Shown in pieces: positions 1 through 10,260 of a stretch of 10,260 bases of DNA. The position numbers and the translations under genes are program-made. Below the pieces are notes generated by a model. The model worked only from the letters and a program-made list of their open reading frames with translations. It was not told the DNA's origin and ran no database searches. This DNA is from a virus. Location of the stretch: UHGV virus genome UHGV-0142988; one strand, written 5' to 3'. The stretch's first letter is position 1, and the number at the start of each line of letters is the position of its first letter.

Positions 1-38
1 CGAGTCTCGTGGGCTTCGGAGATGTGTATAAGAGACAG
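1..38. other. Sequencing adapter remnant (Nextera/Tn5 mosaic end, one-base indel) at contig start; artefact
   Basis: Positions 20-38 read AGATGTGTATAAGAGACAG, the 19-bp Tn5 mosaic end, preceded by GTCTCGTGGGCT(T)CGG, the Nextera read-2 adapter with one extra T. Confidence 0.85.
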
Positions 39-42
39 CTCA

Positions 43-238
43 TGTCCGCCCCACACGGACACTTCCCCAAATTTGTCCGTCCACCACGGACACTCACAGA
101 CACAGATGTCCTCTGTACGCACACAACGGACAAAATAATAGTGCAATATACACAACTATTACTGGAAATCAATCCAATAATTGTGCACATTGCACTATAA
201 AAATCAGTTATTTTAGAACATTATGCTCTTGTGTCCGT
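43..238. repeat. Terminal-region short repeats TGTCCG(T)/ACGGACA: two hairpin-capable inverted pairs (~43-61, ~74-92) plus solo copies (~126-132, ~232-238)
   Basis: Six copies of the 6-7-mer within ~200 bp directly after the adapter; the first two pairs are inverted repeats with 5-7 nt spacers. Confidence 0.6.
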
Positions 239-269
239 GTGTGAGAGACACATACAGGGGTGATGTTTT

Positions 270-283
270 CGAACATGTGTTCT
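270..283. promoter_or_regulatory. Candidate LexA/DinR SOS box (Cheo-box-like, cGAAC-atgt-GTTCt), with an overlapping GTTC-tat-GAAC
   Basis: GAAC-N4-GTTC with 5' flanking C, ~17 bp upstream of the predicted -35. This is the only such site I found in the window. Confidence 0.5.
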
Positions 284-299
284 ATGAACAATATGGACT

Positions 300-328
300 T
301 TGAATAAATCTAAATAATTACATATAAT
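300..328 (+). promoter_or_regulatory. Candidate sigma-A-type promoter for the rightward early operon
   Basis: TTGAAT (-35, ~300-305), 17-bp spacer, TATAAT (-10, ~323-328); ~30 bp upstream of a GAGGTG RBS and the ATG at 359. Confidence 0.5.
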
Positions 329-358
329 AATGTTATCAAATGAAAGAGAGGTGAACAG

Positions 359-508
359 ATGACAGATTACGAAGAAAGCTACAAAAATTATCTTGCATGG
401 CTCACTCCACGTGAGCTATTGCATGAATACAAGATCATGCGTTTACCGTGGCGTTATCGGGAACGAAAATGGATCAAAGAAGAAATAGAAAGTAGGTGTG
501 TGTACTAA
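359..508 (+). CDS. Small hypothetical protein (49 aa; MTDYEESYKNYLAWL...), below the ORF-track length cutoff
   Basis: ATG with GAGGTG RBS ~7 nt upstream; first ORF after the promoter; read by eye. Confidence 0.35.
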   Translation: MTDYEESYKNYLAWLTPRELLHEYKIMRLPWRYRERKWIKEEIESRCVY

Positions 509-602
509 TGTTGGATGCTATATTGTGGTTTGGTTTTGGTGCTATATTAATTTTTCCGTATGGAGTTTGGTGTGGGGCAAAATGGTCAGGAGGATATAAG
601 AA

Positions 603-806
603 ATGAAAAATTATTGTGATATATGTTTTACATGTAATGATGCTGAAGTTTGTCATTCATGTAGCCAGCCAGAGATTTGTTCCGAATTTAAAAAGTGTTT
701 TGATCATAAGCCTTATATAATGTGGGAGAAAATGACAAGTTTTGACGATATCATGAGATGTGTTGAGAAATGGAGGGTGTACAATGAGCAGACCGTTAAA
801 CAGTAA
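603..806 (+). CDS. Small Cys-rich protein (67 aa), possible zinc-ribbon-like
   Basis: AGGAGG RBS ~7 nt upstream of the ATG; CxxCxxC...CxxC spacing in the N-terminal 32 residues (seven Cys). Confidence 0.55.
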   Translation: MKNYCDICFTCNDAEVCHSCSQPEICSEFKKCFDHKPYIMWEKMTSFDDIMRCVEKWRVYNEQTVKQ

Positions 807-1041
807 GAAGTCATGGTATAAGGTATATATCAAAGAATTAAATACACCGAATATCATTAAAAGTCAGTGTAAATATAAATGCGATTATCTATTAGTAAAG
901 GCATACACAGGATCAGTCGCAATGGCAATCGTGCAGGACTACGTTGTCGAGTTTGAAGAAAATTTCCGTCCTGTATACTACAACAAATTGGAGGGAGGTG
1001 TTCCTATTGACAACAAAAAAGTCTTATTTGAAGAAGAGTAA
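784..1041 (+). CDS. Hypothetical protein (86 aa from internal ATG; track ORF begins at 760)
   Basis: GGAGGG RBS ~6 nt upstream of the ATG at 784; overlaps the 3' end of the previous gene; protein-like composition. Confidence 0.45.
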   Translation: MSRPLNSKKSWYKVYIKELNTPNIIKSQCKYKCDYLLVKAYTGSVAMAIVQDYVVEFEENFRPVYYNKLEGGVPIDNKKVLFEEE

Positions 1042-1648
1042 ACCACAAGGTCTTATAAGAACAAAAGACGATTATACGCCGCTTGCTCTCGAGTTAACAT
1101 GGGATATGAAAGACGTTAGAAAAGAGTATTCACGGTTAAGATCAATCTGGCGTAAACGTTATGAAAGATTACTGAAATCTGACTATAAAGATATCAACCT
1201 TGTAACGGATCGACCGATCCAACGTTACAAGCAGTTGAAAGATATAACAAGTGATAGAGAACTCTATCACTTGTTATCTGAACTATCAACTATTATAGGA
1301 TCAGATCGAACTACAGTAACAGGATTGAAAAAACGGGAAAAAGAGCAGATGGAACACATCAACGATGTGTATGGAACAGAGTTAAAAACGCACGAAGATT
1401 TATTAAATTTTGGACGTTTCATGGAACAGTTACGGGATTTTGCATCTGATAGAATATACGATTCTGATTTTGCAGTTGATTTATATTCTGATGGTGAAAA
1501 GCTGAGTACGGGCAAAATGTTAGAGCTATACAAGGAATTTTTGAAAACTGGATCACGTAACATCGAAAAATTGAAATCTGGCATAGCAAAGAAAGAAAAA
1601 GCGAAACGTCAGAAGAGGAAAGCAGGCAAACGTAAACGTAGGAGGTAA
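1007..1648 (+). CDS. Candidate terminal protein (~213 aa if started at TTG 1007; track ORF 944..1648)
   Basis: Directly upstream of, and translationally coupled to, the protein-primed DNA polymerase (its stop lies in the polymerase RBS). Strongly basic C-terminal tail KKEKAKRQKRKAGKRKRRR. GGAGGGAGGTG lies ~6 nt upstream of TTG 1007. Function is from synteny, not homology. Confidence 0.45.
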   Translation: MTTKKSYLKKSKPQGLIRTKDDYTPLALELTWDMKDVRKEYSRLRSIWRKRYERLLKSDYKDINLVTDRPIQRYKQLKDITSDRELYHLLSELSTIIGSDRTTVTGLKKREKEQMEHINDVYGTELKTHEDLLNFGRFMEQLRDFASDRIYDSDFAVDLYSDGEKLSTGKMLELYKEFLKTGSRNIEKLKSGIAKKEKAKRQKRKAGKRKRRR

Positions 1649-1651
1649 CAC

Positions 1652-3733
1652 ATGGAAAATCTGTATACTATTGACACATATAATTATAATAGAATACGGA
1701 ATTTACCATGTTTACATGATACTAGGTCTAACAAAGGAAGTAAAAAAGCAAAAGGTTATAAAAATTGTCTGTGTGCTTTCGATATCGAAACAACTAGATT
1801 GGAAGATATCGAGCAGTCAATAATGTATATCTGGCAGTTTTCAATTCTTTTTCTTGATGATTTACATGTTGATACGATAATTGGAAGAACGTGGACAGAA
1901 TTTGAGTTATTTCTTGATAATCTTATGAATGACGATAACTATGCATATTATATGATTTTTGTTCATAATCTTTCATATGAATTTCAGTTTTTGCGTGGTA
2001 TATATACATTTTCACCGGATGAAGTTTTTGCCATAAAATCACGTAGAATATTGAAATGTGAAATGTTAGAGCGTTTCGAGTTTCGTTGCTCATATTTACA
2101 AACTAATATGTCACTAAATACGTTTACCTCAAAAATGAAAGTAAAACATCAGAAATTATCTGGTGAAAAATTCGATTATAGTAAAAAGCGTTTTCCATGG
2201 ACAGAACTAACCGATTATGAAATAAAGTATAGTACATACGACACGATTGGACTAGTTGAAGCAATGTATAAACGTATGATACTGTCAAATGACAATCTAT
2301 ATACACTACCATTAACGTCAACCGGTTATGTACGTCGTGAAACGAAAAAAGCCATGTATGGTTGGTCACGAAAACACAAGGATATATTTCCCACTATAGA
2401 TGTTTTCGATCTGCTAGAGGAGGCGTTTCGGGGCGGAGATACTCACGCTAACCGTTATTACTCAGGAACCGTGATACGTGCATATGGTAAAAATATTCTA
2501 GGAATCGGTTCATATGATAGGTCATCCTCTTATCCTGACGTTGTGTTGAATTGTGTTTTCCCGATGACACGTTTTGTATATATCGGATCAATAGATGAAT
2601 CTGATATAGATAAGAAACTGGATAGAGGAAAAGCACTCTTATTCCGATGTAAAATAACAGGTATTGAGCAGATCGACAAGTATTACGGATCGCCCTATAT
2701 TTCATATTCAAAATGTAGAAATGTTTCATGTGAAACACTTGACAATGGGCGTATTTTAAGTGCTGACTATATTGAAATAACGCTCACTGATATTGATTAT
2801 GAGATAATGAAACGTGAGTACAAATGGAAACATTTTGAAATAACAGAGTGTTATGAGAGTAAATACGGAGCATTGCCAGAACCGTTGAAAGACATTTTCC
2901 GTAAATATTATACTGACAAAACAGAGTTAAAAGGAATCGTGGAACAGGAACTTTTCTACAACTTGCAAAAGGCTTTGCTTAACGCTGGCTATGGAATGAT
3001 GGTTCAATCACCCGTGAAACAGTCGTTAATATTTACAGAATCGGCAGAAAACATATATACAGTTGATGAAAATGTTTCACGTGAAACATTACTCACTAAA
3101 TATAACAGAACAGCTTTCTTGCCTTATCAATGGGGTGTTTGGGTAACAGCATGGGCACGCCAGCGATTGAAAGAGGGTATAAACATAGTTGGAGATCGTT
3201 ACGTTTACAGCGATACGGATTCAGTAAAATATATAAAAGTAAGAGGTGATAATATTGACGAGTTATTTGATAGATACAATTCTGAGAGAAAAGAGCAAAG
3301 TATCTCCAATTCCGCATACGCAACAGACCGTTATGGCGTTAAACATTATATGGGGGTGTATGAATTCGAGGATACGTATACTGAATTCTCCACCATTGGT
3401 ACAAAAAAATATGTCTATAGAACTAAAGATGGAAAACTACACGCAACAATCGCAGGAGTTAATAAAAAGCTTGCACCGGATGAGTTGGAAGAACATGGAG
3501 GAATTGAAGCTTTCAAAACTGGATTTACCTTTTTACGATCAGGAGGAACTGAAAGCGTGTACAATGACGTTCCTTATGGGGATTACACCGTGGAAAATCA
3601 TGTTTTAAAAATTACACAAAATGTAGTTATCAGACCGTCAACTTACACAATAGGAATAACAGATGAGTACCGTAGGATTTTGGCAGACGCAAGAACATTA
3701 AAAGAATTTAAATATACTTTTGACAAAAATTAA
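1652..3733 (+). CDS. Protein-primed family-B DNA polymerase (693 aa)
   Basis: AGGAGG RBS. Exo I FDIETT, Exo II HNLSYEF, Exo III YSTYDTIGLVEAM, motif A YDRSSSYP (Dx2SLYP-like), motif B KALLNAGYG (Kx3NSxYG-like), motif C YSDTDS, KxY in TIGTKKYVY. Confidence 0.95.
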   Translation: MENLYTIDTYNYNRIRNLPCLHDTRSNKGSKKAKGYKNCLCAFDIETTRLEDIEQSIMYIWQFSILFLDDLHVDTIIGRTWTEFELFLDNLMNDDNYAYYMIFVHNLSYEFQFLRGIYTFSPDEVFAIKSRRILKCEMLERFEFRCSYLQTNMSLNTFTSKMKVKHQKLSGEKFDYSKKRFPWTELTDYEIKYSTYDTIGLVEAMYKRMILSNDNLYTLPLTSTGYVRRETKKAMYGWSRKHKDIFPTIDVFDLLEEAFRGGDTHANRYYSGTVIRAYGKNILGIGSYDRSSSYPDVVLNCVFPMTRFVYIGSIDESDIDKKLDRGKALLFRCKITGIEQIDKYYGSPYISYSKCRNVSCETLDNGRILSADYIEITLTDIDYEIMKREYKWKHFEITECYESKYGALPEPLKDIFRKYYTDKTELKGIVEQELFYNLQKALLNAGYGMMVQSPVKQSLIFTESAENIYTVDENVSRETLLTKYNRTAFLPYQWGVWVTAWARQRLKEGINIVGDRYVYSDTDSVKYIKVRGDNIDELFDRYNSERKEQSISNSAYATDRYGVKHYMGVYEFEDTYTEFSTIGTKKYVYRTKDGKLHATIAGVNKKLAPDELEEHGGIEAFKTGFTFLRSGGTESVYNDVPYGDYTVENHVLKITQNVVIRPSTYTIGITDEYRRILADARTLKEFKYTFDKN

Positions 3734-3781
3734 CATATGTGTTATAATTCATGTAAAGAGATATTACAAGGAGGTGATAAT

Positions 3782-4036
3782 ATGAAAATTACACGTTCAT
3801 TAACAGTTAACAAGATCAACGTTATCTGCTACGATCCTGAGAATAAGTGTGAGTTTGTACAGGAAGTTGGTTTGATCGGAAATCTTACTGATGAGCAGAT
3901 CAGCAAAGAGATTAAAAAAAGAAATTTTGGAATTGTTATTGATTGGGAAAGAACATCAGAAGAAACAAAATTATACGGAATGGATGCCGAAGTGTTTTTA
4001 AAAAATGCAATCATTATTAAAGAAAAGGAGAACTAA
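3782..4036 (+). CDS. Hypothetical small protein (84 aa from internal ATG)
   Basis: AGGAGGTG RBS ~6 nt upstream of the ATG at 3782; sits between polymerase and ATPase genes. Confidence 0.55.
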   Translation: MKITRSLTVNKINVICYDPENKCEFVQEVGLIGNLTDEQISKEIKKRNFGIVIDWERTSEETKLYGMDAEVFLKNAIIIKEKEN

Positions 4037-4039
4037 ATC

Positions 4040-4474
4040 ATGGCAAAGAATTATACTATCATTAAATCATCGGGAAACCTTGATACCTATTCAGAATATG
4101 AACTCATCGAGTCACCTGCAATCGTTTCACTTAAAAACGTAGAAAACAAAGGACTTATCTGTGTTGGAGCGTGGGTGAAATATCTTACCACCGACAATAT
4201 CGGAAATGAAATAACCTGCATTTCAGTGCAGGACGCAAACACAGGAGAGGTATTCTCAGGTCAGTCAGCACCTTTCAGAGAAACATTCGAGGCTGTTACC
4301 GATCGTATTTCTGACATGGACGAAGCTCCAGAAATGTTTTTCATCGAGGTTCTTCATAGACAGTCAAAGTCAGGTCGTGATTATCTTATGTGCGCACTTG
4401 TTTCCCCGGATCGTGCTTTTGCCCGCATGGGATATACTGAAAAGAACATTCCTATGCCAGAGCCCCAGAAATAA
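4040..4474 (+). CDS. Hypothetical protein (144 aa); an SSB or DNA-binding role is only a positional guess
   Basis: AAGGAGA RBS before the ATG at 4040; tightly packed with neighbours; no motif recognised. Confidence 0.6.
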   Translation: MAKNYTIIKSSGNLDTYSEYELIESPAIVSLKNVENKGLICVGAWVKYLTTDNIGNEITCISVQDANTGEVFSGQSAPFRETFEAVTDRISDMDEAPEMFFIEVLHRQSKSGRDYLMCALVSPDRAFARMGYTEKNIPMPEPQK

Positions 4475-4475
4475 T

Positions 4476-5525
4476 ATGTTATCGTTATACGAAAATAGCG
4501 GGTATCTATCGATACCCGCTATTTTAGGATATGGACAAAAGTTTAATTACATCTGGGGTGGCCGTGGTACGGGGAAAACTTACGGTGCTCTTAAATACTG
4601 TATTGAACATAAAAAAATTTTTGCTTATATGCGATCATTGCAAACACAAATTGATATGATTAAAATTCCAGAACTTTCACCTTTTAAAAAATTAAATCGT
4701 GATTTAGGATGGTCAATATATCCGAAAAGTGTCGGGAAAAATATTGCTGTGTATTATAATGCAGAAATTGACGAAAATGGTAAAATAAAATATACTGGAG
4801 ATATACTCGGTTATTCCATAGCGTTAAATACATTTGCCAATTTACGAGGTTTTGATGCATCAGACGTTGAGATAGGAATATATGATGAATTTATCCCCGA
4901 AAAACGTGAACGCAAAGTTGAAAATGCTGGATATGCTTTTAAAAACGCATATGAAACAATGAATCGAAACCGTGAACTTGATGGAATTAATCCGATACAG
5001 TTTTTATTGTTTTCTAATTCTGAAAGTTTATCATGTGATATGTTTATAGAGAATAATTTAATGGAAAAAGTATCGAGCATGGATATTAATAAACAATCTA
5101 TGTCTATTATACGTGATAGAGGTATTGGACTTTTTAACTTGTATGATTCGCCGATTTCTGAAAAGAAAAAAGACACAGCTCTGTATAAAATGTCTGGATC
5201 AGATTCAGCATTTAACAGGATGGCACTAGGAAATGAATTTTATTCCGCTGATTATTCAGGAATTAGAAGCATGAACATTAAAGAACTGATACCACTATGT
5301 AAAATGGACGCTATTACAATATATCAGCACAAGAGAAAAGACTTAATATATGTAACACGGCACAGCTCTGGTACACCGCCAGAGTATTCCAATACAGATA
5401 AGGATGTAAAAGCTTTCAGACGAGATTTTATTTATTTATGGGATATGTATTTATCAAACAAGGTGCTGTTTGAGGATATCACAAGCAAGTCCCTATTTGA
5501 GATTTATTTTAAAAATAAATATTGA
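4476..5525 (+). CDS. P-loop ATPase, phi29 gp16-like DNA encapsidation ATPase candidate (349 aa from the ATG right after the upstream stop)
   Basis: Walker A GGRGTGKT near the N-terminus and Walker B EIGIYDEF about 110 residues later. Size and motif spacing fit phage packaging ATPases of the ASCE/FtsK-HerA class. Confidence 0.75.
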   Translation: MLSLYENSGYLSIPAILGYGQKFNYIWGGRGTGKTYGALKYCIEHKKIFAYMRSLQTQIDMIKIPELSPFKKLNRDLGWSIYPKSVGKNIAVYYNAEIDENGKIKYTGDILGYSIALNTFANLRGFDASDVEIGIYDEFIPEKRERKVENAGYAFKNAYETMNRNRELDGINPIQFLLFSNSESLSCDMFIENNLMEKVSSMDINKQSMSIIRDRGIGLFNLYDSPISEKKKDTALYKMSGSDSAFNRMALGNEFYSADYSGIRSMNIKELIPLCKMDAITIYQHKRKDLIYVTRHSSGTPPEYSNTDKDVKAFRRDFIYLWDMYLSNKVLFEDITSKSLFEIYFKNKY

Positions 5526-5671
5526 TTTTGTGTTTTATATCTGATATTATCTTTAATAGAAAGACAAGTGTTCGTGGCACACGTACAACACGTCGGGAGC
5601 GTGGGATCATAAGAATCCAATGTGCATGAGCATGTACAGCTCAAGAATTTGTAACACTTAATCTTTCATCA

Positions 5672-5708
5672 CATATGCAGAGTGTCAAAGCCTGCATATG
5701 TTTTGTTT
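5672..5708 (+). terminator. Candidate intrinsic terminator after the ATPase operon
   Basis: 9-bp stem CATATGCAG / CTGCATATG with an 11-nt loop, followed by TTTTGTTT. Confidence 0.55.
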
Positions 5709-5754
5709 CACGTGAAACATTTATCACCTTTCTTTAATGTTTCACGTGAAACAT
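5704..5754. promoter_or_regulatory. Tandem palindromic operator-like sites: TGTTTCACGTGAAACA (~5704-5719) and ATGTTTCACGTGAAACAT (~5737-5754)
   Basis: Two perfect 16-18-bp palindromes 33 bp apart, directly upstream of a TATAAT-like element (~5774-5779) and the RBS of the gene at 5791. Confidence 0.6.
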
Positions 5755-5790
5755 GTTATATGTTGTGCTAATATATAATGGAGGTGAAAT

Positions 5791-5988
5791 ATGGACGTTA
5801 ACTCATTATCAACTCTTATCAGTAACATTGGTGTGCCTTGCGCCTGCCTTATTGCGACTTTCTATCTTTGGCAGAAAGAAACGGATTCTCACAAAGAAGA
5901 AATGAAACGCATGACAGACGCACTCAACAACAACACTCAGGCACTTACAAAACTCACAGAACATATCACAGGAAGTGAAAAAAAATGA
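5791..5988 (+). CDS. Small single-pass membrane protein, holin-like (65 aa)
   Basis: GGAGGTG RBS; one hydrophobic segment (LSTLISNIGVPCACLIATFYLW) then a charged C-terminal tail; ATGA overlap with the next gene. Confidence 0.55.
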   Translation: MDVNSLSTLISNIGVPCACLIATFYLWQKETDSHKEEMKRMTDALNNNTQALTKLTEHITGSEKK

Positions 5989-6230
5989 CGATTAACTACA
6001 ACAAAAATATCAGAGGTGTGTATATCGTCGCAACGAACACAGGGCCTCTGATGGTCAGGGCAGAGCCTAGTACAGACGGAACAGTTATCGCAGAAATGCC
6101 GAAAAACACAAAATGCATCTGTCTAGGATGCTATTCTGGAAACTGGTATGCAGTCATTTACGAACATGACAGTATCATTTCCACCGGCTTTTCTCACAAA
6201 AATTATCTCAGGAGGGATTATAAGATATGA
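5985..6230 (+). CDS. Stand-alone SH3b-like cell-wall-binding domain protein (81 aa)
   Basis: Pattern GVYIVATNTGPLMVRAEPSTDGTVIAEMPKNTKCICLG...GNWYAVIYEH...GFSHKNYLRR resembles bacterial SH3 domains; no catalytic domain attached. Confidence 0.6.
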   Translation: MTINYNKNIRGVYIVATNTGPLMVRAEPSTDGTVIAEMPKNTKCICLGCYSGNWYAVIYEHDSIISTGFSHKNYLRRDYKI

Positions 6231-6421
6231 CGTTAGACAACTTAATTACACTCATTTCAGCAGGATTCACGAAAGAAGAGATCCTCACAATGTCAGGTAC
6301 AGTCACCCAGCGTGCCCCACAGCCACAGCCACAGCCACAGCCACAGCCACAGCCACAGCCACAGCCACAGCCACAAAATACAAAGCAGAAATTGCAAAAT
6401 CAAGATCTAAATACAAATTAA
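6227..6421 (+). CDS. Small protein with a (PQ)10 linker-like repeat (64 aa)
   Basis: ATGA overlap with the upstream gene; contains the in-frame hexamer repeat. Confidence 0.5.
   Translation: MTLDNLITLISAGFTKEEILTMSGTVTQRAPQPQPQPQPQPQPQPQPQPQNTKQKLQNQDLNTN
6317..6375. repeat. Tandem hexanucleotide repeat (CCACAG) x ~9.8
   Basis: Perfect tandem copies read directly in the sequence; encodes PQPQ... in the 6227 ORF frame. Confidence 0.95.
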
Positions 6422-6608
6422 GTGATATTTTAATTCGTGTAGAAAAAAATAGCCTTTATTTTTATTTGCGTAAATGATTCCTTTACTTTTAGCACTAAAA
6501 GCAAGAAAACTATAATTTTATAATTTTCTTTGTTTAAGGCCAGTAATGTTTTCGGCGTTTCAATTGTCCTCGACGAAGGCCGCTTCCGCGACCTTATCTA
6601 GCCCGTGC

Positions 6609-6965
6609 TCATTGAGAACGATCAACTACCATGTATGTTGGTTGACACAGGCTGCCGCGTTCCTGTAACCAGTAGTAATCAAGATCCGCAACACGCATAT
6701 CCAACCCCGAATCCACACGATTGATCTGTAACCGCAGCCCTACAGTATCTTTGTACGATAAACCAGATTTAACATTGTACTTGTACTTAACCCCGCTTTC
6801 TTCTTCAAAAGATTTGAGATAAGGGGGGATTTGCTTCTGAATTTCTTTCAAACAAATAACTTCCCCATCAATTACGAACGGCTTTTCAGTTTTACCGTCA
6901 GGAATAGTAGCCGCAATTGTGGTTAATGGAACTATCGACAACAGTACTGATAATGCTCTTTTCAT
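6609..6965 (-). CDS. Secreted small protein with N-terminal signal peptide (118 aa from the MKRALS start)
   Basis: AAGGGGA RBS before the internal ATG; MKRALSVLLSIVPLTTIAA is signal-peptide-like with no lipobox Cys; ~20 nt downstream of the partner gene. Confidence 0.6.
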   Translation of the reverse strand: MKRALSVLLSIVPLTTIAATIPDGKTEKPFVIDGEVICLKEIQKQIPPYLKSFEEESGVKYKYNVKSGLSYKDTVGLRLQINRVDSGLDMRVADLDYYWLQERGSLCQPTYMVVDRSQ

Positions 6966-6987
6966 CTGTTCTTCCCCTTGAATATAA

Positions 6988-7599
6988 TCATTGTTTAGAA
7001 CAAATTTGTGTAATGGTTGCATTATGGTTAAATTCAACATCAATTACTTTTATAGTATTATCATTAAGTACAGATACAAAATAATTACTTGACGAATTTC
7101 CGTACTTCCTTGAACCATCTGCTGCAATCTTGTTGAATTTAGCAGTATACACACTATCTTTATCGCCGGGAATTGGCATTCGACTGATTAATTCATTATC
7201 GGAAATAGTATAATAAATTAAAATTCCTTTATCTGAATAGTAACCTGAATCGCTTTTTGTTCCCTGTCGAGTTTGTATTATTGCATCGAACTTATCGCAT
7301 TTATAAACATTGGTTTTGGCCTTTTCAGTACTGGTAGACGTTGAAGCCTTTACATCAGTACTTTTATCTTGTGAAACAACCCCGGAACCGATACCTACCG
7401 AAACGACAAAGACAATAAAACTCATGCCTAACGACGTAATCAAAGTACGGAACTTTCCCCGACCTTTATTTCTGGAATAGTTTGAAACTTTCCTGAAAGT
7501 AAGTACTGCAAGGATCACACAAATGATGAAAACGACAAGCCCGGCCATAAAATCCCTCAAACGTTGTGTATCAAAGGCAATCATAGTATCACTTCGCAA
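6988..7599 (-). CDS. Two-TM membrane protein with Ser/Thr-rich ~130-aa extracytoplasmic domain (203 aa, or 198 aa from ATG 7584)
   Basis: Hydrophobic segments AGLVVFIICVILAVLTF and LITSLGMSFIVFVVSVGIGSGVV separated by a basic loop; TTG start in the track with an in-frame ATG 5 codons later. Confidence 0.6.
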   Translation of the reverse strand: MRSDTMIAFDTQRLRDFMAGLVVFIICVILAVLTFRKVSNYSRNKGRGKFRTLITSLGMSFIVFVVSVGIGSGVVSQDKSTDVKASTSTSTEKAKTNVYKCDKFDAIIQTRQGTKSDSGYYSDKGILIYYTISDNELISRMPIPGDKDSVYTAKFNKIAADGSRKYGNSSSNYFVSVLNDNTIKVIDVEFNHNATITQICSKQ

Positions 7600-7601
7600 T
7601 A

Positions 7602-7624
7602 CATTGATCGATTAAAGCGATCAA
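7602..7624. promoter_or_regulatory. Palindrome ATTGATCG-attaaag-CGATCAAT in a divergent control region (7600-7700) that also carries three ATCAAT copies
   Basis: 8-bp inverted repeat just upstream of the leftward gene start and upstream of the rightward leader. Confidence 0.35.
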
Positions 7625-7699
7625 TTTTTGATTTTCGATCGGTTAAATCTATCAATATCTATTAATTGAAGACAAATCAATAGGTAAAAACGATCAGAC

Positions 7700-8100
7700 G
7701 TTGGTCAGTACTTCGGAAACACCAGAAGTATGGTTTGGGTCTGCCGTTTAAACGCCCTCAGAAAACCGCTAAGGTCTCTTTATCGCATATGGCTTGGGAT
7801 TTCAGCCTTTGGCTAAAATCGCTTTCAGGGGGGCTTCTTGTGCGTTTTGTCGGGAACACCATCATGGAGGGGGATAAATCGGATCGAAGTCGCTTCGCTC
7901 TGGTCAGTACTGGAAGGGTTAGCTTATCTGGCGAGGGAAGATGAATTGCCAGGCTTCATGAAGATGGTTGGTTTTGTGGACAAGAAGAACTGCCGTTTTG
8001 AGTATTCCCCCTCACACCCAACAAACCTACCCATTAGCAAGGGGGAGTACTTTCTCGTAGTATACAGAACGAATAAATTCTTTGTATACTTCCGTTTTAT
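7700..8100 (+). ncRNA. Candidate structured 5' leader / cis-regulatory RNA (class unassigned)
   Basis: ~400 nt without a convincing ORF, visibly more GC than flanks. 12-bp stem (~8001-8012 / 8040-8051, one G-U pair) with a C/A-rich 27-nt loop, then an AT-rich hairpin (~8059-8090) plus U-tract just before the downstream start. The 11-mer TGGTCAGTACT occurs twice (~7703, ~7901). Confidence 0.35.
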
Positions 8101-8111
8101 CCTAAAGCGAT

Positions 8112-8801
8112 TTGATTATGGACGAGAATAATAAAGAAGTTATTGAAATAAGACCAGAAGATAAGGACTTTTTCGCAGAATTTATTGATTGTGAAGGTCC
8201 AATTATCCAAGATTCAATTGATCATAAAAAAATCACCCTCGCACTTGATAAAGCCCACGACATAAGAAAGTTTGAAATAGATCTCTATTGGAAGCGTGCT
8301 ACATACTTCTTCGCATTCTTCACTGTAATAACAGCTGCATTTGGTTATTTGTTCACCCATGACAACTATACTTTCTTAGCCCCTGCACTTGCGATCATTG
8401 GTTCTGTTTTTGCTTTATGTTTTTGTTATGTGAATATCGGTAGTAAGTATTGGCAAGAAAACTGGGAGTTTATAATTGATAAAATTGAATATTATGTCAC
8501 AGGAAACCTTTATAAACTTTTCTTCTTCGAAAACCATAGAACCAAACGCCCATCAGTCACTAAGATTAATATATTTCTAAGCAAGCTAATTATAGCTACA
8601 TGGTACGCTTGCTTTATACTTTCCATGCACCAGATATGGAATCAAAGCATGGTATTAAATGTCTCTTATATTATCCTTACCATATATAGCACTGGAACGA
8701 CATTATATTACTGCGATAAAACTGTTGCAGACATATCGAACAATGATAAAGAATCACCACGATTCTTTAGATTCAGAAATCCTAATTACATAAAATCATA
8801 A
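8112..8801 (+). CDS. Multi-pass (about 4 TM) membrane protein with ~60-aa soluble N-terminal domain (229 aa; probable ATG at 8118)
   Basis: Four hydrophobic segments (ATYFFAFFTVITAAFGYLF; FLAPALAIIGSVFALCFCYVNI; INIFLSKLIIATWYACFILSMH; MVLNVSYIILTIYSTGTTLYY); weak RBS. Confidence 0.65.
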   Translation: MIMDENNKEVIEIRPEDKDFFAEFIDCEGPIIQDSIDHKKITLALDKAHDIRKFEIDLYWKRATYFFAFFTVITAAFGYLFTHDNYTFLAPALAIIGSVFALCFCYVNIGSKYWQENWEFIIDKIEYYVTGNLYKLFFFENHRTKRPSVTKINIFLSKLIIATWYACFILSMHQIWNQSMVLNVSYIILTIYSTGTTLYYCDKTVADISNNDKESPRFFRFRNPNYIKS

Positions 8802-8805
8802 ACAT

Positions 8806-8824
8806 GGGGGCATTTGATGCCCCT
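8806..8824 (+). terminator. Candidate terminator hairpin GGGGCAT-ttg-ATGCCCC just after the stop codon
   Basis: Perfect 7-bp GC-rich stem with 3-nt loop; the downstream U-tract is weak on plus and better on the minus strand. Confidence 0.45.
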
Positions 8825-9065
8825 TGTAAATTGATAATCCGACCTAAAAACACTTTGAGTACTTCATTTGTCAGTACTGTTATCTGTTTGAGCGAAAGCG
8901 AGTAACGGCTTTGGCGTGCTTTCGAGTACTGCGAGAAAAACGCAAAGTTACGATCTGATATTTGGTTTTTATAGAGACTAACAAGCAAAGCGAAGTTAGG
9001 CTCTTTAGATACTGAATATCAGTAAGGCTAATACATTCAAAATATCAGGTGAAAGGCAATATTAT

Positions 9066-9194
9066 ATTAAGTTACGGTTATTCACCCCACTGCATAAAAC
9101 AAGAATAACCTACTGATTTTACGGACTTTTATTTGAATAATAATTCACTAATAATCATGATAACCGTATTTCTTAGTTTTAAGTTACGGTTATA
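9066..9194. repeat. 15-bp direct repeat TTAAGTTACGGTTAT (~9067-9081 and ~9179-9193) with an inverted partial copy ATAACCGTA (~9161-9169)
   Basis: Read directly; lies in a convergent intergenic region abutting the 3' end of the gene at 9202. Confidence 0.7.
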
Positions 9195-9201
9195 GGTACG
9201 A

Positions 9202-9669
9202 TTAAACAATGGTTCGTAGATATGCAATCAGATCTTTCGCTGAGGCATTACTGTTCAATAATTCCTGTACTGCGTTCTTCTGTTCGTCGGTTAATGGCTT
9301 ACCAGGCAATGCTTTCTTTAGTCCACATAGCGTACCACCTTCTTCTACAAACTTATCCAATGCTTTAGCAACTGCGGTACAGGCTAATTTGTACTTCTCG
9401 ATAGATGATTCACTTGCTGCAAATTTCTTCATCTGATCTGAACGGGTTAAGGTAAGATAATACTTAACCTGTACTTTTGAAAGCTCTGTAGCGTGTTTGA
9501 CGATGTAGAAGACATCTTTAACAGGTAACTTGTACTTTCCCAATGATTTACACTCTTGAATCGTCTGGTTAATTATTAGAGTTGCTTCTGATGTTAGGCC
9601 ACTGTAAGTAACACGTTTTAGTGCTTCTTCTAACTTTTTATTGTTATAAATCCTTTCTTTTTTTGCCAT
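9202..9669 (-). CDS. Hypothetical protein (155 aa)
   Basis: Clean ORF with ATG start; protein-like composition; no motif recognised. Confidence 0.6.
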   Translation of the reverse strand: MAKKERIYNNKKLEEALKRVTYSGLTSEATLIINQTIQECKSLGKYKLPVKDVFYIVKHATELSKVQVKYYLTLTRSDQMKKFAASESSIEKYKLACTAVAKALDKFVEEGGTLCGLKKALPGKPLTDEQKNAVQELLNSNASAKDLIAYLRTIV

Positions 9670-9759
9670 GATAAATACCCCTATGGAAGATGTTAATTAA
9701 TATTGGCCTGATGTATTCCTAATACTCAGGCTTTTTATTTAAGAAGAAAATGGGTGGGG

Positions 9760-10026
9760 TTATACTCCACGTACCTTCTTGAACCATTCACGATACTCTG
9801 GCACTTTATTTTTGCGTAAATTGCTAATGAAATCTTGATCGCAATTAACTTTAAGTAAATTACAAATCCTAGCACTTGTCATATCACTTAGTAGGATATT
9901 CTCGTACTGAGAGAATGTTAGTTGAATGAAATTAACCTTTTCTTTCTTTCGAACTGATTTGTTCAATGACTTCCTATTAGTCCTGATTTTATTTTTTGTT
10001 TTTATTTTACCGTTTTTCTTTGACAT
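9760..10026 (-). CDS. Small basic protein with possible C-terminal helix-turn-helix (88 aa)
   Basis: GGAGTG RBS before the ATG; very basic N-terminus (KKNGKIKTKNKIRTNRK) followed by an HTH-like segment. Confidence 0.55.
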   Translation of the reverse strand: MSKKNGKIKTKNKIRTNRKSLNKSVRKKEKVNFIQLTFSQYENILLSDMTSARICNLLKVNCDQDFISNLRKNKVPEYREWFKKVRGV

Positions 10027-10260
10027 TTTGTCACTCCTCTAAATTAAAATTCATCTCATGGTTAACCTCCTACGGCTGTTGTTTATGTTCGATTGGCTAT
10101 ATGTTAACGGGCAAAATTGCCCCAATCAAGGAATAGTTGCAACTTTTTCTTGACAAGATCATTACTATTCAAGTCAAAAAATCATATATCATTTAGGCAC
10201 TATCTTTGGGTAATGACTCCAACTTATTGATAGTGTTTTATGTTCAGATAATGCCCGATG

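Follow-up and report, generated by a model that had tools for sequence, protein, structure and literature searches.

The ripA gene and its family

The stretch of DNA analyzed here, the 10,260-nucleotide (nt) virus genome record UHGV-0142988 (the window), carries toward its right-hand end a gene, here called ripA, that codes for a small inner-membrane protein of the 8xMP/RipA family. The window is a chimera, with positions 1-6316 derived from an unrelated small PolB phage and positions 6317-10260 from an Escherichia coli island. RipA lies in the island part, within a cassette (7904-8832) in which the 3' end of a truncated phage gene is followed by an RNA hairpin with covarying stem, a palindrome resembling a promoter, ripA itself, and a terminator-like hairpin (Table 1).

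The gene was listed as a 229-amino acid (aa) open reading frame (ORF) at 8112-8801(+) that begins with TTG, two codons 5' of an ATG at 8118. A prior sequence-only reading of the window had used this ORF at full length, and its existence is borne out by homologues and by a RefSeq match, but RefSeq and the homologues use the ATG, and TTG 8112 is probably not the start in use. Every close homologue begins with MDE or MDN, and the DNA alignment 5' of the gene is conserved as far as 'ATTATGGA'. The coding sequence (CDS), with its stop codon at 8799-8801, is a real gene that specifies a 227-aa protein (MDENNKE...), identical at 226 of 227 residues to the E. coli 'RipA family octameric membrane protein' of RefSeq, WP_000344175.1. 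Its GC content is ∼0.34 to 0.35, and this allele is present in only 29 to 31 of 5,426 complete E. coli genomes. A word-indexed search identifies 782 homologues at an E value of ≤1e-3, and a full hidden Markov model scan of 1.84 billion cluster representatives identifies 3,457 (50%-identity clusters) at the same threshold and 1,279 at ≤1e-30, from phyla that include Pseudomonadota, Bacteroidota, Bacillota, Spirochaetota, and Acidobacteriota.

Pfam places the protein in PF24838 ('8xMP, octameric membrane protein family') with an E value of 3e-28 and 98.7 bits (gathering cutoff, 30), across residues 45 to 171 of the 229-aa ORF (43 to 169 of the 227-aa protein) and profile positions 4 to 134 of 136, and 95 of 95 aligned homologues match the same profile. 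The profile search thus returns 8xMP, and neither the SLATT family suggested in the sequence-only reading nor a transporter. Judged from its sequence, the protein is a direct member of the 8xMP/RipA family, which is already named and annotated and is functionally uncharacterized, so that it represents no new kind of system. An octameric state, which comes from the family's name, is putative here. Other Pfam matches of the window protein at E ≤ 10 are weak and to unrelated families (Comm, TrbE, and PalH), and those recurring weakly over the 95 homologues are to DUF2207_C, DUF4131, Imm17, LptF_LptG, and similar families. NCBIfam contains no matching model, and sequence and fold searches of the PDB give no informative match and no solved relative. 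Among 25 long family members inspected there is no recurrent domain fusion, and their extensions are heterogeneous, including extra transmembrane (TM) helices, one TPR_12/TPR_10 array, one DUF1353, and probable gene-call artifacts.

A literature search for the origin of the names '8xMP' and 'RipA family' did not find the source, with most hits concerning RIPA buffer and only papers on Francisella being relevant. The presumed namesake is Francisella tularensis RipA (FTL_1914/FTT_0181c). This protein of ∼18 kDa is described as homo-oligomeric, located in the cytoplasmic membrane, and dependent on two cytoplasmic domains that are both essential (PMC4322802, PMC2767360), and its loss is suppressed by mutations in lpxA and glmU (PMC4322802). 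Francisella RipA is needed for intracellular growth and is encoded by a core chromosomal gene.

Table 1. Features of the window, with the positions of a second cargo family in other loci (last row)
Feature	Position	Strand	Basis or remarks
ripA-like CDS	8118..8801	+	PF24838 match; homologue starts; 226/227 identity to WP_000344175.1
N-terminal cytoplasmic region, residues 1-41, variable: short strand, helix 13-23, short strand	8118..8240	+	Model pLDDT 78-95; low conservation, lower alignment occupancy
Conserved juxtamembrane helix preceding TM1 (A42..HDIRKFEIDLYWKRATYFF), includes LYWKRATYFF	8241..8312	+	R50, F52, E53, Y57, W58, R60 invariant
TM1, ∼residues 61-80	8298..8357	+	Model and hydropathy
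TM2, ∼residues 86-106, G95 invariant	8373..8435	+	Alignment, model, hydropathy
Conserved cytoplasmic helix following TM2 (GSKYWQENWEFIIDKIEYYVTGNLYK), includes YWQENWEF	8436..8516	+	S109, W112, W116, E117 invariant
SV(S/T)KIN motif, conserved, running into TM3 (∼residues 146-171); Pfam 8xMP core ends here	8553..8630	+	Pfam, alignment, model
TM4, ∼residues 178-200, sequence variable	8649..8717	+	Model, alignment
Basic cytoplasmic tail after TM4	8718-8798	+	Model, alignment
Gene stub: final 32 codons, frameshifted, of a gene for a ∼102-aa phage protein (phrog_2100 family, no assigned function); left cassette edge	7904..8001	+	SVLEGLAYLAREDE in frame +2, then IARLHEDGWFCGQEELPF and stop in frame +1
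RNA hairpin: 11-13 bp stem, 27-nt loop with conserved AACAAACCTACCCA	8002..8049	+	z −3.58; covariation between loci
Promoter-like palindrome TATACA-N18-TATACT, ∼28 nt before ATG	8061..8090	+	Consensus scan only; site count not above shuffles
GC-rich terminator-like hairpin GGGGCAT-caa-ATGCCCC, just past stop	8807..8823	.	T-run scored on minus strand
Non-coding stretch homologous to right edge of prophage cargo slot	8839..9070	.	78-93% identity to L227, L212, L084, L088, there after other cargo genes
Two divergent hypothetical membrane/secreted proteins	6609-7599	-	198-203 aa with N-terminal TM helices; 118-144 aa with signal-peptide-like start
155-aa hypothetical gene	9202-9669	-	
Long inverted repeat	138-198		Left phage part
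PolB-like 693-aa protein	1652-3733		No Pfam match; likely protein-primed PolB by motifs
144-aa ORF	4040-4474		Left phage part
phi29-type gp16 packaging ATPase	4377-5525		Pfam
SH3_3 protein	5985-6230		Left phage part
Second cargo family in other loci	L017 7155-7868; L004 5851-6528; L212 8229-8942; L084 10231-10944; L175; L159; L305 6242-6805		

Membrane topology and conserved residues

RipA is a four-helix inner-membrane protein with both termini in the cytoplasm (N-in/C-in), in agreement with the four TM helices and cytoplasmic N-terminal domain described in the sequence-only reading. Kyte-Doolittle analysis gives three strong TM windows (residues 61 to 79, 87 to 105, and 152 to 170); TM4 has weaker hydropathy and yet is modeled confidently by AlphaFold2. 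The model, computed with an alignment of 95 sequences that are 27 to 82% identical to the query and that also underlie the conservation figures given here, has a mean pLDDT of 90.3 and a pTM of 0.81, with helices at residues 13-23, 34-80, 82-127, 147-172, and 178-203. As modeled, helices 34-80 and 82-127 would form a long hairpin that passes through the membrane and projects into the cytoplasm, with two further TM helices following. Counts of lysine plus arginine in the successive non-membrane segments, from N to C terminus, are 10/0/7/0/6, placing the N terminus, the TM2-TM3 loop, and the C-terminal tail in the cytoplasm.

The conserved surface is a cytoplasmic juxtamembrane belt, and the N terminus and TM3/TM4 are variable. 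Two motifs had been noted by eye, LYWKRATYFF (residues 56 to 65, nt 8283-8312) before TM1 and YWQENWEF (residues 111 to 118, nt 8448-8471) after TM2; both are where they were said to be, and they hold the best-conserved positions of the family. Residues R50, F52, E53, Y57, W58, R60, G95, S109, W112, W116, E117, and S146 are invariant in the alignment and all present in the window protein, K59, A61-F64, Q113, and N115 reach 90% conservation or more, and the family signature flanking TM1 and TM2 is present as IRKFEI..YWKRATYF, GSKYWQENWE, and SVSKIN.

These motifs had been taken to recall SLATT-type effectors, and the outline is alike, with two TM helices set close together between cytoplasmic helices, the second of which contains aromatic and acidic residues. 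SLATT proteins are described as predicted pore-forming toxins of conflict systems, built as 2-TM modules coupled to SMODS, SLOG, reverse transcriptase (RT), or TIR partners (Burroughs et al. 2015, as cited in 10.64898/2026.04.29.721553). If RipA were a true member of the SLATT superfamily, it would be a pore-forming 2-TM module that a partner enzyme triggers through a signal derived from a nucleotide, DNA, or RT, which we regard as highly improbable. The window protein has no Pfam match to SLATT_1-5, SLATT_fungal, or DUF4231 at E ≤ 10, none of these models is in the list of the 25 families that the 95 homologues match most often, and PADLOC returns zero matches, such that SLATT membership is not supported by these sequence-level searches of the protein and its homologues. 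Moreover, the SLATT core has two TM helices, whereas RipA has four, with three within a conserved core that reaches into TM3, and there is no recurrent SMODS, SLOG, RT, or TIR neighbor in ±4-gene clustering or when 91 and 150 neighbors are scanned against Pfam and PADLOC. The resemblance is confined to a helix-TM-TM-helix hairpin with aromatic and charged juxtamembrane residues.

Organization of the ripA cassette

The transferable unit is the block 7904-8832; the window has this block and a right flank (8839-9070) in common with prophage cargo slots. The ∼215 nt upstream of the gene (7904-8117) are 88% identical to DNA upstream of a homologue (P0011) whose protein is only 56% identical to that in the window. 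The left edge is the remnant of a phage gene of the phrog_2100 family, and intact genes of this family are located upstream of ripA or other cargo in five loci (L212, L091, L204, L207, and L179). The higher GC content of the leader and two spurious ORFs (7735-7944 and 7838-8131) are partly accounted for by this stub.

The leader had been described as structured, which holds locally for the hairpin at 8002-8049 but not for the leader as a whole; the 519 nt from the divergent gene to ripA have no global structure, and a 436-nt segment upstream of the gene has a minimum free energy no better than that of shuffled sequences (z-score, −0.07). The hairpin has a fixed loop (∼22 to 27 nt) and stems that are wholly different between loci, with at least six unrelated stem sequences of 8 to 17 bp, including CCCCCT/AGGGGG, CACGCC/GGCGTG, TTCCACC/GGTGGAA, CCACCCTCAAGCC/GGCTTGAGGGTGG, and a 17-bp stem in L123. 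Chance occurrences of the loop 14-mer have stems mostly of 5 to 7 bp, compared to 8 to 17 bp in true hairpins. Single-sequence z-scores of the five correctly cropped hairpins range from −2.9 to −9.1, and the G-U pairs fit the + (coding) strand. The hairpin sits 60 to 110 nt upstream of cargo genes and is also present at L084 (∼7885-7935), L088 (∼7880-7930), L179 (∼8358-8405), L123 (∼10596-10680), L091, L168, L175, L017, L170, and L207. No Rfam family matches it, and candidate roles are as a binding site for a protein or small RNA, as a processing or stability element, or as a regulator of cargo expression. In an IMG/VR scan with the 14-mer loop motif, nearly all of the hits are due to chance, with ripA accompanying 2 of 120 and a few true hairpins preceding other cargo.

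The promoter-like palindrome is conserved in close relatives. Overall, the cassette has the attributes of moron or hot-spot cargo, namely a promoter and terminator (predicted by consensus only), a variable slot, conserved flanks, and exchanged content. The segment at 9653-9739, at the start of a gene, is also 78 to 93% identical to the right edge of the slot in L227, L212, L084, and L088. The homology of 8839-9070 and 9653-9739 to this edge suggests that the island beside ffs in which the window's ripA resides is a reduced relative of those prophages.

Genomic contexts of ripA relatives

In integrated enterobacterial prophages, four homologues (P0011, P0007, P0004, and P0009) occupy a cargo region that has a lambda-type terminase (Nu1/GpA) on one side and a large serine recombinase on the other, where ripA is transcribed opposite to the structural genes; P0011 is found in ∼400 assembly blocks. 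In the P0009 loci and in Mangrovibacter (L004), an OLD-family nuclease gene, a gene for a ∼190- to 225-aa membrane protein, and ripA follow each other, with the nuclease gene and ripA on the same strand. P0002 (82% identical) follows a CI-like S24 repressor gene, and Yersinia P0020 shares an islet with a Tlde1-domain gene, flanked by trpA and ompW. Relatives are also present on 12 IMG/VR contigs and, at low identity, on 14 plasmids.

The location of ripA in these prophages bears on whether it could be a holin-like lysis protein, which we consider barely credible. RipA is indeed a small multi-TM protein, and 4 of the 95 homologues have weak matches to Phage_holin_3_6. However, no endolysin or spanin gene adjoins it in any locus examined, it belongs to no PHROG family, its place is in the cargo region, where its transcription runs against that of the structural genes, and it is also found in islets that are not prophages.

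The cassette's content is exchanged between loci. L159 and L212 share both flanks, with homology stopping right after ATG-GAC-GAG; the slot holds ripA in only one of the two loci and different genes in the second, and ripA is therefore one among several exchangeable cassettes. The same leader precedes a gene for a 131-aa membrane protein in L159 and genes for ∼240-aa TM plus coiled-coil proteins in L175, L168, and L017. The latter belong to a second cargo family of ∼190 to 260 aa with an N-terminal TM region, a long helical tail, and the motif 'YAA(x)(N/R)(A/K)K(N/A)(W/P)(L/E)W..', and searches of Pfam, PHROGs, and PADLOC give no match to it. Of 182 loci, 22 have both this family and ripA, almost always in the same orientation, but the window lacks the family, which is therefore not an obligate partner of ripA.

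No conserved neighbor or operon partner emerges from blastp clustering of ±4 genes across 72 to 76 diverse RipA-carrying loci, which fits a single-gene module. OLD/GajA-like ATPases are within four genes of ripA in 5 of 72 loci, and other neighbors across phyla include Abi_alpha, AbiTii, AbiEi, HEPN, CHAT, DNA methylase, and TPR proteins. The conflict-system context is real for the enterobacterial clade and suggestive for the family as a whole.

In several enterobacterial loci (L084-87, L091, L212, and L308), ripA adjoins genes for Hcp, Tlde1-domain, DUF1493, and DUF8209 proteins, and RipA could accordingly be an immunity or protection protein for an adjoining type VI secretion effector, within an orphan Hcp-effector-immunity islet. 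This is improbable, as these genes are on the opposite strand and convergent with ripA, and neither the window nor the 29 to 31 E. coli genomes that have this allele contain them, nor do most of 72 diverse loci. The conserved parts of RipA are also cytoplasmic, whereas Tlde1-type effectors act in the periplasm, and co-residence in one cargo slot explains the pattern.

The chimeric window and the E. coli island

Positions 6317-10208 are 99.9% identical to 29 complete E. coli chromosomes, whereas none of 1-6316 is present in the 5,426 complete E. coli genomes. A gut 'Bacteriophage sp.' record from human feces that has no annotation (MT837693) is 74.5% identical to the left part across 2.7 kb. 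The switch (6317-6373) is within a perfect (CAGCCA)n repeat that is present in both sources, and the join is probably an assembly artifact; a real recombinant, of which the complete genomes show no example, is less likely. Because the window is chimeric, the phage context of its left 6.3 kb is disregarded and was rejected as a clue to function. The contig starts with a Nextera adapter (1-38), with the mosaic end AGATGTGTATAAGAGACAG at 20-38 (0 chance matches expected), and it ends (10204-10260) with the terminal ∼55 nt of IS1, which match the IS1 of P1, SfIV, and other sources at 96 to 100% identity.

In complete genomes the island is ∼10 kb long and lies between ybaA and ffs (L003), running on past the position of the window's IS1 end to the integrase gene and ffs. 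Its genes code, from first to last, for a DUF2188 protein, a resolvase, a nucleoid-associated protein (NAP) and a 554-aa protein, two divergent hypothetical proteins, RipA, a 155-aa hypothetical protein, and a site-specific integrase beside ffs. The 554-aa gene, which has a PQ repeat, overlaps the upstream NAP gene by 4 nt (L003 12309-15022), and the window includes only its last ∼105 nt (6317-6421). NAP-plus-partner operons were recently reported as PANGU abortive-infection systems (10.64898/2026.04.06.716658), and the pair resembles these in architecture, such that the island resembles a defense island.

Both divergent neighbors of ripA are without family matches in Pfam, PHROGs, PADLOC, and NCBIfam. 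A protein 75% identical to the smaller one is encoded near the ripA locus of P0002 (L001 7534-7832). A perfect 15-nt direct repeat, TTAAGTTACGGTTAT, is at 9067-9081 and 9179-9193 (spacing, 112 nt), in intergenic DNA shortly past the point where the 155-aa gene stops.

A proposed role in phage exclusion

Our best reading, held tentatively, is that RipA is a stand-alone oligomeric membrane protein that excludes phages or takes part in abortive infection. Going by the family name and by what is described for Francisella RipA, it may assemble into a homo-oligomeric ring, which the aromatic and charged belt on its cytoplasmic face (R50, E53, Y57, W58, R60, W112, W116, and E117) would line or gate. 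The ring could then act at the membrane in conflicts with phages or other mobile genetic elements, either by blocking superinfection or by permeabilizing or depolarizing the membrane of the infected cell, with specificity perhaps supplied by the variable N-terminal ∼40 residues and TM3-TM4. That the gene codes for a membrane effector of a conflict system, as proposed in the sequence-only reading, is plausible from its context, with ripA in cargo slots of prophages and islands, some OLD-family, Abi, and HEPN neighbors, and a PANGU-like operon in the same island. The alternative of a transporter or other housekeeping family with no conflict-system neighbors, against which that proposal had been set, is not what the 8xMP assignment and these neighbors indicate.

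Several observations weigh against an anti-phage role. PADLOC-DB v2.0.0 has zero families matching at E ≤ 1, PHROGs gives no match, and tblastn finds no homologue in 50,697 sequenced phage genomes (INPHARED). Many loci have ordinary neighbors (CTP synthase, LysR, the trp operon, and TRCF), and the defense-neighbor signal is modest and was counted without a control set. The presumed namesake is a core chromosomal gene product tied to lipid A synthesis and not to phage (PMC4322802).

This last point introduces the main rival, in which RipA is an envelope-homeostasis or lysogenic-conversion factor like Francisella RipA. Its cytoplasmic regions would modulate envelope biosynthesis, making ripA a mobile fitness gene with an indirect effect on phages, for example through an altered lipopolysaccharide receptor. 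The RefSeq family is named after RipA, and the homo-oligomeric state, two essential cytoplasmic domains, and lpxA/glmU suppression of the Francisella protein (PMC4322802) match the conserved cytoplasmic juxtamembrane helices seen here; housekeeping neighbors are found in many loci, and 13 of the 95 homologues have weak LptF_LptG Pfam matches, which are probably noise from TM composition. Against this, the likeness to Francisella RipA is one of published description, and the family is present in Bacillus, Paenibacillus, Vagococcus, Clostridium, and other bacteria without lipid A. In Enterobacteriaceae, moreover, the gene is patchy, of low GC content, and located in exchangeable prophage slots, unlike a core envelope factor. 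This distribution argues against an envelope role, which we consider unlikely, and an explanation other than those described here is unlikely to much the same degree.

Extending phage exclusion to the family, 8xMP/RipA could be an uncatalogued class of single-gene membrane effectors that spans phyla and serves in phage exclusion or abortive infection, with the enterobacterial cassettes carried in a prophage cargo slot and their expression governed by an undescribed RNA hairpin with a AACAAACCTACCCA loop and covarying stem that also precedes the TM plus coiled-coil family. This broader proposal is doubtful. If the defense role is correct, a 227-aa stand-alone protein with ∼3,500 diverged relatives across bacterial phyla, outside the defense catalogues, would be a compact new membrane-acting anti-phage module, giving a function to a family otherwise known, on the presumed namesake link, only by a Francisella virulence phenotype. 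The anatomy of the cassette (stub, fixed-loop covarying hairpin, promoter-like site, gene, and terminator-like hairpin) may mark a recombination or regulation module for the swapping of prophage cargo, and it could be used to mine further cargo genes.

Comparison with known systems

The window protein has no structural difference from the PF24838/RipA family, which is without a demonstrated function in Enterobacteriaceae. The topology described for Francisella RipA, with two cytoplasmic domains, agrees with that of the core of the window protein, as compared by published description only. However, Francisella RipA is core chromosomal and linked to lpxA/glmU, whereas the window gene is patchy mobile cargo whose product has a fourth TM helix.

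With SLATT/DUF4231 proteins, such as the SLATT-5 effector of DRT10/UG17, RipA shares the helix-TM-TM-helix hairpin, conserved juxtamembrane residues, occurrence in conflict contexts, and a proposed membrane-perturbing output. Unlike these, it is stand-alone, without a nucleotide-synthase, RT, or TIR partner, and it has neither a profile nor a PADLOC match.

Sequence or fold similarity to lambda RexB, P22 SieA, or HK97 gp15 was not detected, and RexB needs RexA, whereas ripA has no fixed partner. These are nonetheless likewise small inner-membrane proteins with their own expression signals in the lysogen, encoded in a variable slot near the prophage end. In addition, the OLD-family nuclease gene of the P0009 and L004 loci, located two genes upstream of ripA on the same strand, is the kind of cargo that P2 carries as old.

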